Shown piece after piece: positions 19,843 to 28,907 of a stretch of 37,150 bases of DNA (the stretch's first letter is position 1; each line of letters starts with the position of its first letter). The stretch is from Promethearchaeota archaeon. Lineage in GTDB: Archaea; Asgardarchaeota; Lokiarchaeia; Sigyniarchaeales; SOKP01. Made by a program: the position numbers and the translations under genes. Below the pieces are notes generated by a model that made no database searches, was not told the origin of the DNA, and saw only the letters and a program-made list of their open reading frames with translations. The stretch is taken from the NCBI GenBank assembly GCA_011364925.1, contig RDOA01000037.1:1-37150 (forward strand), read 5' to 3'.

Positions 19843-21732
19843 ATGGAAAAAAGAACAGAAAGGAGACAAACATTAAAAGAGTTAGAAAAAAGGTATAAAC
19901 TATTTTATGATTATGCTCCACTTCCTTATCAATCCTTAGATGAGGATACTAATATTATAGATGTTAATCAAGCTTGGCTTGATTTTTTAGGATATGAAAA
20001 GGAAGAAGTCATTGGGAAATGTTTTGGAGAGTTTTTAGTTCTCAAAAGTCGAGAATTACTTACGTCAAGATTTTCTCATTTTAAGGAGGTTGGCGTAATT
20101 CGAGATGTGGAATACGAAATCGTAAGAAAGAACGGAAATCATAGCATAATTTGGTTAGACGGTAGAGTAGAATACGATAAAAGCGGTAAAGTCAAACAAG
20201 CACATTGTTTTTTTAAGGATATTACCGAACGTAAAAAAGCGGAAGAAGAACTAAAAGAATCTGAAGAAAAATTCAGATCAATTGCTGAGCAATCTTTTAT
20301 GAGCATATACATTATACAAGATGGGTTGTTTAAATATTTTAATCAGCGAACAACAGAAGTAAGTGGATATAGTAGAGAAGAGATTCAAAATTGGGAACCT
20401 TACGAGTACGCAAAAGTTGTTCATCCCGAAGATCGAGATTTTGTATTTGAGCAATCTAAAAAAAAGCAAGAAGGCGATAAGGATGTCATAAACAATTATC
20501 AGTATAGAATAATTAAAAAGACAGGTGAAATTGCTTGGCTTGATCTTTTTTCTAAAACAATTAATTATATGGGTAGACCTGCAGATATGGTAATGTCGGA
20601 AGATATTACTAAAAAAATAGAAGCAGAACAAAAATTAAAAGAGTCCCAAGAGAAGTATAAATATCTTTTTGATAACGCACAAGTAGGATTATACTGGTCT
20701 AGAGTAACCGATGGTAAATTCATAGAATGTAACGAGACATTTGCTAAATTATTTGGTTATGGTACAAGAGAAGCATGTTTGGCAGATTATGTCGCGACTG
20801 AGCACTATGTTAACCCTCATCAAAGGGATGAAATTTTAGATGCGATTCGTACTAATAATGAAGTACGAGGATATGAGATATTAGTCACTAAAAGAGATGG
20901 GACACCTATTTGGTTAAGCATTTCTGCCCGAATGTTTGAAAACGAGAATCGGATTGAAGGTGCTGCGATTGATATCACTAAACGGAAAAAAGCTGAACAA
21001 GAATTAGTAGAATCTGAAGAACGATACAGGAAAGCGTATGATAAGGCAGATTTCTACAAGGATTTATTGGCGCATGATGTGAGTAATATTCTTAACAACA
21101 TTAATGCTTCAGTACAATTAATTAAAGTTTGGAAGGATGATTATAATTTAACTACAAATGAAAAAGATATGTTAAATATCATCAGACAACAACTAAAAAG
21201 AGGTGCGTCTTTAGTTTCAAACGTACGAAAGCTTTCAGAGATAGAAGAAAGTGAAATAGTTGTGAATCCAATCGATGTAAGAGACATAATAGAGAGGTCG
21301 ATCGAAGAGGTTCGCTCAAGATTCCATGAAAAGGATATGGAAATAAACCTTAATACTGCAGAAGATAATATCAAAGCTATTGGGGGTGAACTTCTAATTG
21401 ATGCCTTCGAAAATTTATTAATCAATGGTGTGATTCACAACGACAGCGAGAAAATAAGGCTGTGGATTGATATTTATAAAGTGAAGGAAGAAGGAAACCA
21501 TTATATAAAGATTGAATTTAAAGATAATGGTCTAGGAATAATTGACGAGCGAAAAACAGCTATCTTTAAGCGAAACTATAAACAAGACAGGAGTACGGGT
21601 GGAATGGGGATAGGTTTGTCCTTAGTGAAAACCATAATTACTAATTACGACGGGAAAGTTTGGGTTGAAAATAGGTTAACAAGAGATTATACGCAAGGCT
21701 CTAATTTTGTTATACTGTTAAAAGAAGGTTAA
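19843..21732 (+). CDS. Cytoplasmic PAS-domain sensor histidine kinase (3 PAS/PAC)
   Basis: DITERKKAE/DITKK/DITKRKKAE PAC ends, H-box LLAHDVSN, N-box FENLLING, DNGLGI, GMGIGL. Preceded by AGGAG SD. Confidence 0.93.
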   Translation: MEKRTERRQTLKELEKRYKLFYDYAPLPYQSLDEDTNIIDVNQAWLDFLGYEKEEVIGKCFGEFLVLKSRELLTSRFSHFKEVGVIRDVEYEIVRKNGNHSIIWLDGRVEYDKSGKVKQAHCFFKDITERKKAEEELKESEEKFRSIAEQSFMSIYIIQDGLFKYFNQRTTEVSGYSREEIQNWEPYEYAKVVHPEDRDFVFEQSKKKQEGDKDVINNYQYRIIKKTGEIAWLDLFSKTINYMGRPADMVMSEDITKKIEAEQKLKESQEKYKYLFDNAQVGLYWSRVTDGKFIECNETFAKLFGYGTREACLADYVATEHYVNPHQRDEILDAIRTNNEVRGYEILVTKRDGTPIWLSISARMFENENRIEGAAIDITKRKKAEQELVESEERYRKAYDKADFYKDLLAHDVSNILNNINASVQLIKVWKDDYNLTTNEKDMLNIIRQQLKRGASLVSNVRKLSEIEESEIVVNPIDVRDIIERSIEEVRSRFHEKDMEINLNTAEDNIKAIGGELLIDAFENLLINGVIHNDSEKIRLWIDIYKVKEEGNHYIKIEFKDNGLGIIDERKTAIFKRNYKQDRSTGGMGIGLSLVKTIITNYDGKVWVENRLTRDYTQGSNFVILLKEG

Positions 21733-22619
21733 GTTTGTGATAAAAGTTCAATTAAAGCCCTAGGAATTTCCTTATAATCGTTAACTGCTAAGAATTTACC
21801 TTGTCCAACTCGAGCTATTTCTCGGCACGTATCAATGCCTCTTTCTGCATCGTTCTCAGCAGGTATAGCAATGACATGTAATTTTGGATATCTTTTTGCC
21901 GATTCAATGGGGTCATTCCCTCTATTATAATTTCCGTCACTAATTAGTATCCCAAAATTGTGTCTTGTCTTTTCTTTAATTTTATTTAATTCTTTTAAAC
22001 CCATTTCTAGCCCGATATTAATGTTTGTAAAGCCTACTGCTTCAGAGTCAAGAATTTCATCTATAATTTTTATAACAGGTTTATTCTCGTCTATTTTTTT
22101 AAGAATCATAGCCGTTGAATTGAAAAGAATAATACCATACCTTTCTTTGTCCATATTATACGCTAAAACTGATGTAGTAAGAGCAGCATTAAGTAAAAGC
22201 TTCCCATACATACTTCCACTCGTATCTAAGATCATGACAATATTTCTCTTTTGCTTTTTTCTTTGGATTCCAAAAATATCTTTGTAAGTTAGAGTTTTTT
22301 TATAGATATTTAGTGGATTGTGTTGAATTGTTTCATCTATATCAAACTCTGGAGTTCCTATCCGATAATTAGGGACCACTTTTTTAAAATTCCCACGAAT
22401 TCCTTTGCTTGTAATTTTTAATGATGTTTTTAAGATGCTCTGTCTTGCTAACCGTTTAAAAATGTACTTGTATTTCTCTGAAATTGGTCGTCTTATAAAA
22501 AAATACACTTCTGCCATCGAGGTTTCAGAGTCTTTTGCTTTTTCCGAAAAGAATTTTACCCCCTCGTCGCAATTTAATGCGTCAGTTGCTGCGTATACAT
22601 TTGATTTAAGTAACCCCAT
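21729..22619 (-). CDS. von Willebrand factor A domain protein (CoxE/ChlD C-terminal-like); the frame stays open without a start codon up to 22856
   Basis: MIDAS DTSGSM, GFTNI, ISDG, and FDIDETI upstream of the vWA domain. Downstream of and co-oriented with the MoxR ATPase. Confidence 0.9.
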   Translation of the reverse strand: MGLLKSNVYAATDALNCDEGVKFFSEKAKDSETSMAEVYFFIRRPISEKYKYIFKRLARQSILKTSLKITSKGIRGNFKKVVPNYRIGTPEFDIDETIQHNPLNIYKKTLTYKDIFGIQRKKQKRNIVMILDTSGSMYGKLLLNAALTTSVLAYNMDKERYGIILFNSTAMILKKIDENKPVIKIIDEILDSEAVGFTNINIGLEMGLKELNKIKEKTRHNFGILISDGNYNRGNDPIESAKRYPKLHVIAIPAENDAERGIDTCREIARVGQGKFLAVNDYKEIPRALIELLSQT

Positions 22620-22840
22620 TATCGCTTCGAGATTTTTATGTTGAATCGATAAATAAGTTAACTCTTTAATCTGTTTGTAGTCTAAACTGTTCGCTAAATG
22701 TTGATAATAATCGGGCTTTTTCTTTTTCTTTCGAATAATTTCGTATCGGAGTATTTTTTCGTCGGGAATCCTTTCCGTAAGTCTTACATGGAGCCTTTTA
22801 TTCTCAATCTCCTCGGAATCTACCGCAGAGAAATCATCGA

Positions 22841-23713
22841 TTATTGAAAATCCGCTTTATTTAGAACGGATAGCACAATTCCTGCAATTATATCTTCTTT
22901 TGAACTAGTGGTACCATCCTCAAGTTCAATCTTGTTATACAGCGCCATAATTGCGATATTGACCCAATTCTTCGTACTTTTTATATTTTCTGTCTTAAAT
23001 GCTAGTTGAGCCAAATCAATCGCGCCTCGTATTGAACTACCTCTTCTAATCGATGTATGATTCCTTGATCGATCAACTATCTTTTGAGAAATTTGGGCAA
23101 TTTTATCTCCATTAGAATCGTTTAGAATAGCTTCCTGCTTGATGATAAGAATTTCCTCTTCAGCGGATTGAAAACCCAGGTTAATCCAGATGAACCTATC
23201 TTTTAAAGCTTCTCCAATAACAGTAACGCCAACATGCGCTGCAGGATTCTGAGTAGCAATTACAAAGAATTTCTCGTGAGCCTTGATCGTCTTTAGTTTA
23301 GGAATTTCTAAAATACCCTCGTCTAACGCTGTTAAAAGTGAATTTTGGGTGCTCTCAGGCATTCTATTAATTTCGTTAACGAAAAGACATCCTCCTTTTA
23401 ACATAGAGGAAGCAAGCGGTCCATAGATATACGAATCTTCTAAATACCCTTTTGAAATCACTAACGGAGGATCAAAATAACCTACTAAATTATGAGGTAA
23501 TGTTTCCTCAGAACAATCGATCCGTGTAAAGTTTGTGTCGTAATACGAAGCTATCGCTTTTGCGATTCGAGTTTTTCCTACCCCTACTTCACCCTCAATA
23601 AGAATGTTTTTATTGACAAGTCGTGCTAAAATAATTTTCTCTAACTCTTCGGTTCGACCAATAACTTTATATCTTTTTTGTATTTCTTTTACAATCTCAG
23701 ATGCGTTTAGCAT
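22841..23713 (-). CDS. MoxR-family AAA+ ATPase
   Basis: VIGR, Walker A GEVGVGKT, Walker B LFVNEINR, QNSLL, IATQNP, EALKDRF, SSIRGAI. Confidence 0.92.
   Translation of the reverse strand: MLNASEIVKEIQKRYKVIGRTEELEKIILARLVNKNILIEGEVGVGKTRIAKAIASYYDTNFTRIDCSEETLPHNLVGYFDPPLVISKGYLEDSYIYGPLASSMLKGGCLFVNEINRMPESTQNSLLTALDEGILEIPKLKTIKAHEKFFVIATQNPAAHVGVTVIGEALKDRFIWINLGFQSAEEEILIIKQEAILNDSNGDKIAQISQKIVDRSRNHTSIRRGSSIRGAIDLAQLAFKTENIKSTKNWVNIAIMALYNKIELEDGTTSSKEDIIAGIVLSVLNKADFQ
22847..22853 (-). other. Candidate -1 ribosomal frameshift slippery heptamer G_GAT_TTT
   Basis: Lies in the last codons of moxR (GCG GAT TTT CAA TAA). The -1 frame opens just after a TAA at 22859-22857 and runs in frame into the vWA ORF. 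Confidence 0.6.
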
Positions 23714-25894: not shown

Positions 25895-27148
25895 TTAGGG
25901 GTAAAGATAAACCAACACATTATCGCCTTTTTTCATTCCTTCCATTTCCTCAGATATCTCTACAATTCCGTCAGATTGAGTCAATGAACTTATAACGCCA
26001 GAACCTTTTAATTTAACTGGTAACGCAAGAACTTTCGATCCTTTCTTTTCAAGCTTTACTCTTAAAAAATGAATATATCCCATTTGTCCTACGGGTACAT
26101 CTTGGCTCATTTCAGCTATGATTTCTATTCTTGGATCTAAATTAGAGCATCCTAGCATCTTCCTGATTGTAATTCCAACTATTGATAAAAAACAAACATA
26201 AGCAGCTACAGGTGTTCCTGGTAAACAAAAAATAAGTGATTGTTTTAACGATCCGATTAAGATGGGGGAACCCGGTCGCATTGCAATTCCATGAACTAAC
26301 ACCTCACCACATTCATGTACTATCTCGGGTAAAAAATCTTTAGTTCCAACCGAAGTTCCACCAGTAAAGATGATAATTTGAGAATCTGTAGAAGATAGAA
26401 GTAAATTTTTTTTAATTTCAGCCTTATCATCTTTAAGGCTTAATTTTCTTACAACTTGCCCCCCATAAGTTTCTACTAAACTGGAAATCATAGGACTGTT
26501 AGAGTTGTATATTTTGTTTATTGGGAGAGGGTTACCCGTTTCTATTAACTCGTCTCCTACAGCGAATATGCTAACCAAAGGCTTTTCTTTTACCTTCAGA
26601 ACATTAAATCCTAAGGAAGATAGAAGAGCGATATGAGAAGCTTTTATTTTAATACCTGATTTTAAAATTTCTGTTCCTCGAGGGATATCTTCACCTTTTT
26701 TAGACACATTTTTTCCTGGAACTACGGAGGTATAGAAAGATATTTCATTCTTGTCAATTTTAGTATCTTCTATCTTTACAACTGAATCAGAACCATTTGG
26801 TATTGCAGCCCCAGTTGATATTCTAATTGCTTGTCCAGGTTCAACTGCAAGATCGGATTGTTCTCCAATCTCGATGGTACCAATCTTTTTAATTTTTTTC
26901 GGATTACTAAGAGATGCTCCAAAAGTATCTTCAGCTCTAACTGCATATCCGTCCATCGCAGATCTGTTAAATGGGGGGATGTCTATCGCACTTATTATGT
27001 TCTCTCCCAATATTCGGTCTAATGCTTTTGATGTTTCTACTTCAATTAGAGAAGTTGATGTTGTTAAACTCGCGATTCTTTTCAACGCATCATCTAATAA
27101 TGTCAATTTTGAAAATCCAATTTTTTTAAGATCTTTCAAGATTTTCAC
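25895..27148 (-). CDS. moeA: Molybdopterin molybdo/tungstotransferase MoeA (copy A)
   Basis: PPFNRSAMDGYAV, ISTGAAIP, GDEL, NSN, TGGTSVG, HGIAMRPG, LPGTP. The GTG start overlaps the moaB stop. Confidence 0.95.
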   Translation of the reverse strand: MKILKDLKKIGFSKLTLLDDALKRIASLTTSTSLIEVETSKALDRILGENIISAIDIPPFNRSAMDGYAVRAEDTFGASLSNPKKIKKIGTIEIGEQSDLAVEPGQAIRISTGAAIPNGSDSVVKIEDTKIDKNEISFYTSVVPGKNVSKKGEDIPRGTEILKSGIKIKASHIALLSSLGFNVLKVKEKPLVSIFAVGDELIETGNPLPINKIYNSNSPMISSLVETYGGQVVRKLSLKDDKAEIKKNLLLSSTDSQIIIFTGGTSVGTKDFLPEIVHECGEVLVHGIAMRPGSPILIGSLKQSLIFCLPGTPVAAYVCFLSIVGITIRKMLGCSNLDPRIEIIAEMSQDVPVGQMGYIHFLRVKLEKKGSKVLALPVKLKGSGVISSLTQSDGIVEISEEMEGMKKGDNVLVYLYP

Positions 27149-27681
27149 TCTTTTTTATTTATCATATAAATTGTATGCCTAATTTCTGGTAGAATCAATT
27201 TATTCAAAGCCAATCCAACAGCATTGGGAGAACCGGGTAATAAAAAGATCGCTTTATCTTTAATTTTACCAGCTAATGCTCTAGAAAGCATCGAAGATGG
27301 CCCAATATCCTTGTAAGAAAGATATCTGAATAATTCTCCAAATCCATCTATTATTTTTTCTAAAAGTGGTTTAATCACTTCGTAAGTTATATCCTTTGGT
27401 GTTAATCCTGTCCCCCCGCTAAAAAGAATAGCATTCAGAGTAGGATTACTTAACAACTTATTTACGGTCTCTAAGATCTGATTTTCGTTGTCTGAGATTA
27501 TTTCTGAATATGTTAAAAACACACCGGGAAATTGATCTATGATTTGCTGCACTAACGGAATGGTCTTATCTGAGCTTATCTCCTTTTTTTGTAACTCATT
27601 GTATTTTGAAGTACTTACTATGATTAAAGCAATATTTACAAGTTCAGGCCCCTTTTTTTTATGTTCTTCATGAACTTTCAT
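27145..27681 (-). CDS. moaB: Molybdopterin adenylyltransferase MoaB/MogA
   Basis: SGGTGLTPKDITYE, GFGELFR, MLSRALAG, LPGSPNAV. Confidence 0.93.
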   Translation of the reverse strand: MKVHEEHKKKGPELVNIALIIVSTSKYNELQKKEISSDKTIPLVQQIIDQFPGVFLTYSEIISDNENQILETVNKLLSNPTLNAILFSGGTGLTPKDITYEVIKPLLEKIIDGFGELFRYLSYKDIGPSSMLSRALAGKIKDKAIFLLPGSPNAVGLALNKLILPEIRHTIYMINKKE

Positions 27682-28907
27682 TAAAAGAAATACACCCTTC
27701 TTTTTTCTCCTTCTTCAATAATTGATTCTAATTCATCTATTTCAACATAGCCATCGGCATAAAACATTGTACTGATTGCTTCTGAACCAGTTTTTACAGG
27801 AAAAATCTTATTCACACCATTGACATTTTTAATTTGGACGGGTTTAAATTCGTGACGTCCTATTGGGCTATATATTCTTTCTCCAACTTCTAATTGCTTA
27901 GAATAAGTTTCTTTTAAAGGGTACCCCGTATTTTTTCTTAGAAAATTGTCGATAAATACATAAAAACAGCTTAATGCTGAAGTTGGATATCCTGGGAGTA
28001 TAAAGATAATCTTACTGCCAAACTTTGTAAATATTATTGGTTTGCCCGGTTTAATCCTAACACCATGCACCATAACTTCTTTGTCTTTGTATTCTTCTAA
28101 AACTTTAGGACCTAAATCACCTTCGCCTTTAGATGTTCCTCCAGACATAATAACAATGTCACTATAATCTAAGGCTTTGTCGATTGCACATTTCAACTCA
28201 TTAAAATCGTCTTTCAGGATTCCAAAGAATTCTACAGATGCTCCTGTATTTTCAATTGCTTGGCTTAGAATCTTTGAATTCACTTCGTAAATCTTACCTA
28301 TGTCTAATTCTCTACCATTATCGCTGACAAGCTCATTTCCAGTGCTTATAAGTCCTACTTTTAATTTCTTATAGACAAGGACTTTTCTAATTCCACATGA
28401 AGCTAAAACTCCAAGAGTAGCTAAATCGATCATTCGATTTCTCTTAACAATAATTTCATTTTTCTTAATATCGTGTCCTACTTCTATTATATGAGTGCCA
28501 GGAGTTATAGCTTTAGATATAAGTATCTTTTCTCCTGCTTTTTCAGAAAACTCAACCATTACCACACCATCAGCATTTTTTGGAATTGCTGCCCCAGTAG
28601 CGACATAAGAACATTGGCCTTTAAATAATGCTTTCTGCGGTTTTTCCCCAGCAGGAATTGTCTCGATTAATTTCAATTCAATTAAATTATCCTCTTCAGC
28701 AGGAAATGTATCTTCTGCAATAACTGCGTAGCCATCCATTCTTGATTTACGGAAATGGGGTACATCAATCGGACTTACAACATCTTCGAATAACACTCTA
28801 TTATATGCTTCCTCGAGGGCAACGATTTCCTCTTTTAGTTCTATTTTTGGTATAGAGTCTAGTAATGTTTTAAACTCTTCAACTTTAATGGTTTGTAAAA
28901 ATTTCAT
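27681..28907 (-). CDS. moeA: Molybdopterin molybdo/tungstotransferase MoeA (copy B)
   Basis: PHFRKSRMDGYAV, ATGAAIP, STGNEL, SGGTSKGEGD, HGVRIKPGKP, LPGYPTS. Confidence 0.95.
   Translation of the reverse strand: MKFLQTIKVEEFKTLLDSIPKIELKEEIVALEEAYNRVLFEDVVSPIDVPHFRKSRMDGYAVIAEDTFPAEEDNLIELKLIETIPAGEKPQKALFKGQCSYVATGAAIPKNADGVVMVEFSEKAGEKILISKAITPGTHIIEVGHDIKKNEIIVKRNRMIDLATLGVLASCGIRKVLVYKKLKVGLISTGNELVSDNGRELDIGKIYEVNSKILSQAIENTGASVEFFGILKDDFNELKCAIDKALDYSDIVIMSGGTSKGEGDLGPKVLEEYKDKEVMVHGVRIKPGKPIIFTKFGSKIIFILPGYPTSALSCFYVFIDNFLRKNTGYPLKETYSKQLEVGERIYSPIGRHEFKPVQIKNVNGVNKIFPVKTGSEAISTMFYADGYVEIDELESIIEEGEKRRVYFF

Follow-up and report, generated by a model that had tools for sequence, protein, structure and literature searches.

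We describe here a locus on the minus strand of a 37,150-nucleotide (nt) stretch from a Promethearchaeota archaeon (Lokiarchaeia; GenBank assembly GCA_011364925.1, contig RDOA01000037.1, positions 1 to 37,150; hereafter "the window"), in which a MoxR-type AAA+ ATPase is followed, in the -1 reading frame, by a von Willebrand factor A (vWA) domain with a metal ion-dependent adhesion site (MIDAS). A first-pass annotation, made from the sequence alone, had proposed that a programmed -1 frameshift yields both a 290-amino acid (aa) MoxR protein and an AAA-linker-vWA fusion of about 661 aa. The features of the locus, in window coordinates, are as follows:

21729-23713, minus strand: whole recoded gene, with a predicted 661-aa AAA-linker-helical-vWA product
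22841-23713, minus strand: MoxR-type AAA+ ATPase open reading frame (ORF), predicted short, unshifted product of 290 aa (Pfam AAA_3 1e-20 and AAA_5 1e-19, both above cut-off)
22847-22853, minus strand: candidate slippery heptamer G_GAT_TTT, in ATPase phase, one codon ahead of the ATPase stop
22802-22840, minus strand: kink-turn-like hairpin, beginning 6 nt 3' of the heptamer
22840-22839 with 22803-22802, minus strand: C-helix of the hairpin
22838-22836, minus strand: GAU bulge of the hairpin
22835-22834 with 22805-22804, minus strand: tandem GA pairs of the hairpin
22833-22827 with 22812-22806, minus strand: NC helix of the hairpin
22620-22850, minus strand: start-less -1 frame segment of 77 codons (acidic linker and first helices of the middle domain)
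22413-22763, minus strand: predicted all-helical middle domain of the fusion (model residues 30-146; AlphaFold2, block predicted local distance difference test scores mostly 80-94)
21765-22244, minus strand: vWA domain with intact MIDAS (DxSxS, T, D), from Pfam VWA (1.4e-9), alignment, and Foldseek

The coordinates of the moxR end, its stop (22843-22841), the -1 frame, and the heptamer were exact on re-examination, and the recomputed reading frames are 290 and 661 aa in length. Following a TAA at 22859-22857, the -1 frame opens at 22856 and remains open for 375 codons, to 21729; its first ATG, GTG, or TTG is the ATG at 22619, 77 codons past 22850, and the absence of any such codon from the intervening linker was confirmed. 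A slip at G_GAT_TTT gives the 661-aa fusion (∼75 kDa), compared with ∼32 kDa for the ATPase alone. The overlap of the two frames, which had been described as restricted to the heptamer, instead spans 13 nt before the stop.

The vWA frame was matched in 256 of 400 genomes of the phylum, and 122 Asgard loci could be read with both halves present: 108 in the -1 configuration (20 families), eight in the +1 configuration (four families), and six fused in frame. Excluded from this set were L086, which had been mis-assigned and whose ATPase is cut by a contig end, and L030, L063, L099, and L109, which are without the ATPase half. A plain ATPase/vWA pair with a shared start did not occur among the 122 loci. 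Most close relatives (71-74% identity) carry the label Promethearchaeota; the window's own family of loci is referred to below as f1. Within 225 nt past the ATPase stop, the -1 frame is stopped in 0/108 of the -1 loci (a count favored by the collection of loci via their vWA frame), while both other frames are stopped in all 108. Alignment of the orthologs also bore out the expectation that the start-less -1 linker is kept under purifying selection, with no conserved start codon at its head: the first start codons are spread from -280 to +605 nt around the ATPase stop, and an ATG lies ahead of the first conserved helix in only three of 47 f1 loci.

Codons 19-77 of the linker evolve under a nonsynonymous to synonymous rate ratio (dN/dS) of 0.04, like the remainder of the gene, and N73 and A76, which do not vary across the phylum, precede Met78, the methionine encoded at 22619. 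Synonymous divergence (pS) is 0.14 over linker codons 1-18 versus about 0.6 elsewhere, an approximately fourfold drop at the junction. Here, codons 1, 5, and 16 are each represented by a single codon in 46/46 f1 loci, and the isoleucine at codon 4 is always ATC; elsewhere, none of 192 conserved columns is locked in this manner. In f1, the locked codons are those that carry the bases of the kink-turn (K-turn) considered below.

A phased U_UUY is found within eight codons of the stop in 107 of the 108 -1 loci, nearly always in the last two or three, and the sole remaining locus has A_AAC_CCT. The A-site codon is TTT in 103/107 (background 68%), and the base 5' of the P-site codon equals the first base of that codon in 89/107 (background 29%), the two changing together (G_GAT, A_AAT, C_CAT, G_GGT, C_CGT). 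Such covariation is the pattern expected of tandem tRNA slippage, rather than of a start site or polymerase slippage. The G_GAT_TTT heptamer itself occurs in 38/47 f1 loci, while XXY/YYZ-type variants occur in 19 other families; the conservation of GGATTTT near the stop that had been anticipated thus holds within f1, but across families this heptamer is only one of several that are interchangeable. The description of G_GAU_UUU as a viral -1 slippery sequence is well founded: the pea enation mosaic virus (umbravirus) site is the same heptamer, also with a stop one codon later (PMC5009743), whereas the host here is a cellular archaeal gene.

Stimulators of -1 frameshifting are expected at a spacing of about 5-9 nt, and the candidate 3' element, which is conserved and shows covariation, begins at +6. 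The sequence UC-GAU-GA, starting 6 nt past the heptamer, and GA-GA, ∼30 nt further, are invariant in 44/44 f1 loci, with compensatory changes in four pairs of the enclosed helix (0/500 shuffles). In the other families the core recurs with opposite polarity, its GA located 8 or 11 nt past the heptamer, in 28 of 61 non-f1 loci versus 8.2 under synonymous shuffling, and in about 11-14 families (11 at 50% or more); the GAU bulge is present in 32/44 opposite-polarity loci, and helix pairing is observed in 49/60 and 38/60 versus 37 and 25 when partners are swapped between families. The -1b:-1n pair is C:G in 44/44 f1 loci and in 32/44 other loci, with a compensatory U:A in seven; natural k-turns also have mostly C:G at this position (PMC6298567). 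Two further candidates were rejected, namely an opposite-polarity K-turn in f1 (15 observed versus 27.5 expected) and bulge-helix-bulge splicing, the stop being upstream of the element.

The genome from which the window derives also encodes l7ae, and the leader of this gene shares the K-turn core (contig C54, about 15392-15345, minus strand, L210), in a hairpin that ends 5 nt ahead of the ATG. Of five relatives examined, four have a similar core in the l7ae leader (in G050 it is less distinct), which suggests L7Ae autoregulation in Lokiarchaeia. In archaeal l7ae leaders, k-turns of low stability with a GAU bulge are found in both polarities (PMC6298567), and coding sequences likewise contain k-turns to which L7Ae binds (PMC5539422). 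The element described here resembles those leader k-turns in its weak hairpin, GAU bulge, tandem GA pairs, and two polarities, but the leader k-turn blocks initiation (PMC5539422, PMC6298567), whereas the present candidate lies in coding sequence, 6 nt past the slip site. Since the l7ae leader of the same genome carries a matching core, the slip may be stimulated by L7Ae.

Longer, in-frame homologs of the two halves also exist. In a set of 70 such proteins (563-719 aa), nearly all comprise AAA and vWA domains, and some are named Njordarchaeales, Bathyarchaeota, or Promethearchaeota; their sequences confirm the predicted fused AAA-vWA architecture. The signal at the junction differs among lineages. 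All eight +1 loci have an in-frame TTT_TTT_CGN ahead of the stop, although the slip at these loci may instead be -2. The influenza PA-X +1 site, UCC_UUU_CGU (PMC3498833), shares UUU_CGN with the +1 lineages, while here a single gene family uses both -1 and +1 kinds of site. The same TTT_TTT_CGN is retained at the end of the AAA domain in all Njord-type fused genes examined (five genomes and four contigs, one of them a likely duplicate: L102, L103, L105-L107, L249-L252), with out-of-frame stops within about ten codons; given the residues, the chance of this motif is about 0.13 per fused locus. These fusions probably slip out of frame to generate the short product and so make both products, as in dnaX. 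A separate, close AAA-only paralog in the fused lineages was considered and found unsupported in five f24 genomes (76-91% completeness). In addition, about 20 bacterial homologs (Bdellovibrionota, Myxococcota, Thermoleophilia, Armatimonadia) are also in the -1 configuration, mostly with A_AAA_AAR or C_CCA_AAA-type sites, and a divergent second Heimdall paralog (L174) has an A-rich -1 junction like theirs. A quick tree requires at least four changes for +1 and eight for fusion, as counts that carry no order or root.

Given the frame geometry, the slippery site, the coding linker, the conserved 3' RNA element, and the natural fusions, we consider it very probable that the two frames form a single recoded gene whose expression involves programmed -1 ribosomal frameshifting. 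Most ribosomes would terminate at the stop and release the 290-aa ATPase. A minority would pause when Asp-tRNA occupies the P site and Phe-tRNA the A site; on G_GAU_UUU they would then move one base backward and go on to complete the 661-aa AAA-linker-vWA protein. The pause would be set by the kink-turn-like hairpin at the mRNA entrance, which is weak alone; whether it is clamped by L7Ae, such that the slip depends on this protein, we judge to be an evenly balanced question. The minority fusion would then supply the ring with a tethered MIDAS adaptor.

Several observations weigh against this account, and particularly against its RNA element. Related genomes are not independent, and locus counts therefore overstate the case, such that agreement at the level of families carries more weight. 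The inner hairpin (22831-22808) had been described as weak and as farther away than is typical of a stimulator; its weakness stands, as it is the minimum free energy fold with a stability like that of shuffled sequences (z -0.05), while the distance objection does not, this being the inner helix of an element that starts 6 nt past the heptamer. Any importance of the hairpin is apparently visible only across species. The C-helix in f1 is only 2 bp and was not picked by RNAalifold, which proposed a small alternative hairpin over the heptamer, and Rfam gave no match at the site of the element. The K-turn rules were tuned after seeing the data, and in their loose form match 123 sites in the genome. 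Five families (f10, f13, f16, f17, f33) are without a K-turn, f16 having a plain hairpin at the same spacing, so the K-turn is not essential; likewise, since some of the other fused homologs have no slip site, the short product is not universally made by slippage.

Several of these points favor an alternative in which frameshifting does take place but a plain hairpin serves as the 3' element, the GA motifs being merely the Asp and Glu codons of an acidic linker, with GA steps that coincide with codon starts. Against this, synonymous locking falls exactly at the K-turn bases (GAG in 46/46 at the f1 K-turn codon versus 21% background), the core exceeds synonymous shuffles and appears as one core in two polarities, and the -1b:-1n preference and the l7ae leaders both match. 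If frameshifting is accepted, we therefore regard a plain hairpin as unlikely, and a kink-turn as the likely identity of the element.

The remaining alternatives dispense with ribosomal frameshifting. In the first, two coupled genes are present, and the vWA protein re-initiates at a non-canonical ATC or ATA that overlaps the ATPase stop. The stop/ATC overlap does resemble a classic stop/start couple, and ATC is found in 45/47 f1 loci, but the other two, from different genera, have GTC, in which just the TC involved in K-turn pairing is preserved; codons at the stop vary widely outside f1, where a near-cognate start of any kind is present at this position in only 32 of 61 loci. In families f13-f15 (L081, L085, L090, L092, L093, L095, L097, L059, L061), there is often an ATG 59-68 nt past the ATPase stop, just ahead of the conserved helical domain, which is a possible second, independent start. 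Re-initiation leaves unexplained the locked upstream heptamer, the +1 loci with their own motif, and the fusions, and in its ordinary form it fails because the linker is coding and synonymous change drops at the junction; we consider it very improbable. Less probable still is the addition of a U at the T-run through transcriptional slippage or RNA editing, with the fusion translated from a variant mRNA: T runs of 6-8 do occur in several families, as do long A runs in bacterial homologs, but realignment by the polymerase has been linked to runs of more than 8 T (PMC3711429), the run in the window and most loci is only T4, and the signal is codon-phased, the base preceding the P-site codon covarying with that codon and an RNA element following at ribosomal spacing on the 3' side. 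An assembly error or recently broken gene, conceivable for a metagenome-assembled genome, can be dismissed for the same reasons of linker coding and junction constraint, as the identical break and stop recur in over 100 independent assemblies, several of them single-contig genomes, with both halves under purifying selection.

Returning to the products of the recoded gene, the Walker A, sensor 1, and Arg finger are invariant in 37 orthologs of the ATPase, and the Walker B (window 23372-23383) is Asn-Glu rather than Asp-Glu in 37/37 aligned orthologs, which may alter the ATPase activity. In the vWA domain, the MIDAS residues D209, S211, S213, and D305 are invariant, and T275 nearly so. The AlphaFold2 model of the shifted part comprises a disordered acidic linker, a helical domain, and the vWA domain, which by Foldseek resembles the BatB and NorD VWA; the vWA part had no sequence match in the PDB. 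Sequence matches of the ATPase include CbbQ and NorQ, and its best PDB match is midasin (E 4e-39 over two stretches). The ring, acidic linker, and MIDAS of Midasin/Rea1 provide an architectural parallel only, since midasin has six AAA modules in one chain, compared with the single AAA domain here. The NorQ/NorD and CobS/CobT pairs likewise combine an AAA+ hexamer-type ATPase with a MIDAS vWA adaptor, and the NorQ and CobS hexamers engage their vWA partner in the central pore (PMC13036017; bioRxiv 10.64898/2026.10.09.757910), but those are separate genes, while in the present case the adaptor is predicted to exist solely as part of a fusion with an ATPase subunit. We lean toward a model in which the two products co-assemble into a MoxR-type hexamer that bears one or a few tethered MIDAS adaptors and remodels a client protein.

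The CobN/ChlH large subunit (PF02514) was not found in the window's genome (100% complete, with positive controls), and the protein belongs neither to the ChlD family (TIGR02031, 18.5 bits versus a cut-off of 499.55) nor to the cobaltochelatase family (TIGR02442, 21.4 bits, or 59.9 for a fused homolog, versus a cut-off of 779.45). The predicted client is not a chelatase large subunit. Clustering of neighbors identified no gene common to the loci across Asgard families, and a bacterial-type promoter scan remained at chance level. The non-Njord fusions L254, L255, and L256 adjoin trimethylamine methyltransferase (MTTB) genes, with DUF2284, URO-D, or RACo in some; these corrinoid methyltransferase neighbors hint at corrinoid-protein clients.

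Other neighborhoods were also recorded. Upstream of the AAA gene in the window (25895-28907, minus strand), two tandem moeA flank MoCF_biosynth, a linkage seen mainly within f1. In L249-L252, the fused gene comes after cdc48, with rpoL and EAP30 on its flanks. The window's genome further contains two paralogous pairs of MoxR with an 836/861-aa vWA protein (contig C49, 32695-36183, plus strand; contig C61, 19406-15642, minus strand), with ordinary ATG starts and a related ORF behind each pair; vWA paralogs this long are present across the order.

The precedent invoked in the first-pass annotation, chlD-type frameshifting that yields AAA-only and AAA-linker-vWA subunits from one gene, is documented (fs-chlD; PMC3711429, PMC9227772, reviewed in PMC5009743), and the present genes share with it the two products, a mostly -1 and sometimes +1 shift, fused homologs, and the absence of the large subunit from some genomes. 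They differ in that fs-chlD uses A_AAA_AAR, whereas here there are U-rich tandem heptamers, a MoxR/AAA_5-type ATPase, a kink-turn-like element, and no CobN/ChlH found; the slip sites retained in in-frame fusions further set this subfamily apart. Few cellular frameshifts are established in archaea (PMC5009743). Our literature search, which combined frameshifting with Asgard, MoxR, or kink-turn/L7Ae, returned no account of the present system, although overlap with Antonov 2020 (MBE; +1 motifs, stimulators) is possible, and it returned no case of protein-stimulated frameshifting at a kink-turn.

With these findings, the strategy known from fs-chlD is extended to a subfamily of MoxR type represented in both Asgard archaea and bacteria. 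Because the probable frameshift is found across much of the Asgard phylum, loci there have probably been wrongly annotated as gene pairs in which the vWA protein is truncated. More tentatively, the comparison raises the possibility that L7Ae, a protein of the ribosome and of snoRNPs, binds the coding-region kink-turn as a trans-activator of frameshifting in a cellular gene. In most Asgard archaea, the AAA:AAA-vWA ratio of a midasin-like ring would then be coupled to the amount of free L7Ae, and the gene family would repeatedly have exchanged -1, +1, and frameshift-to-truncate signals for one another without losing either product. If the kink-turn does need L7Ae, the frameshift would be stimulated by a protein and potentially subject to regulation, and its motif would be one known for the control of initiation.

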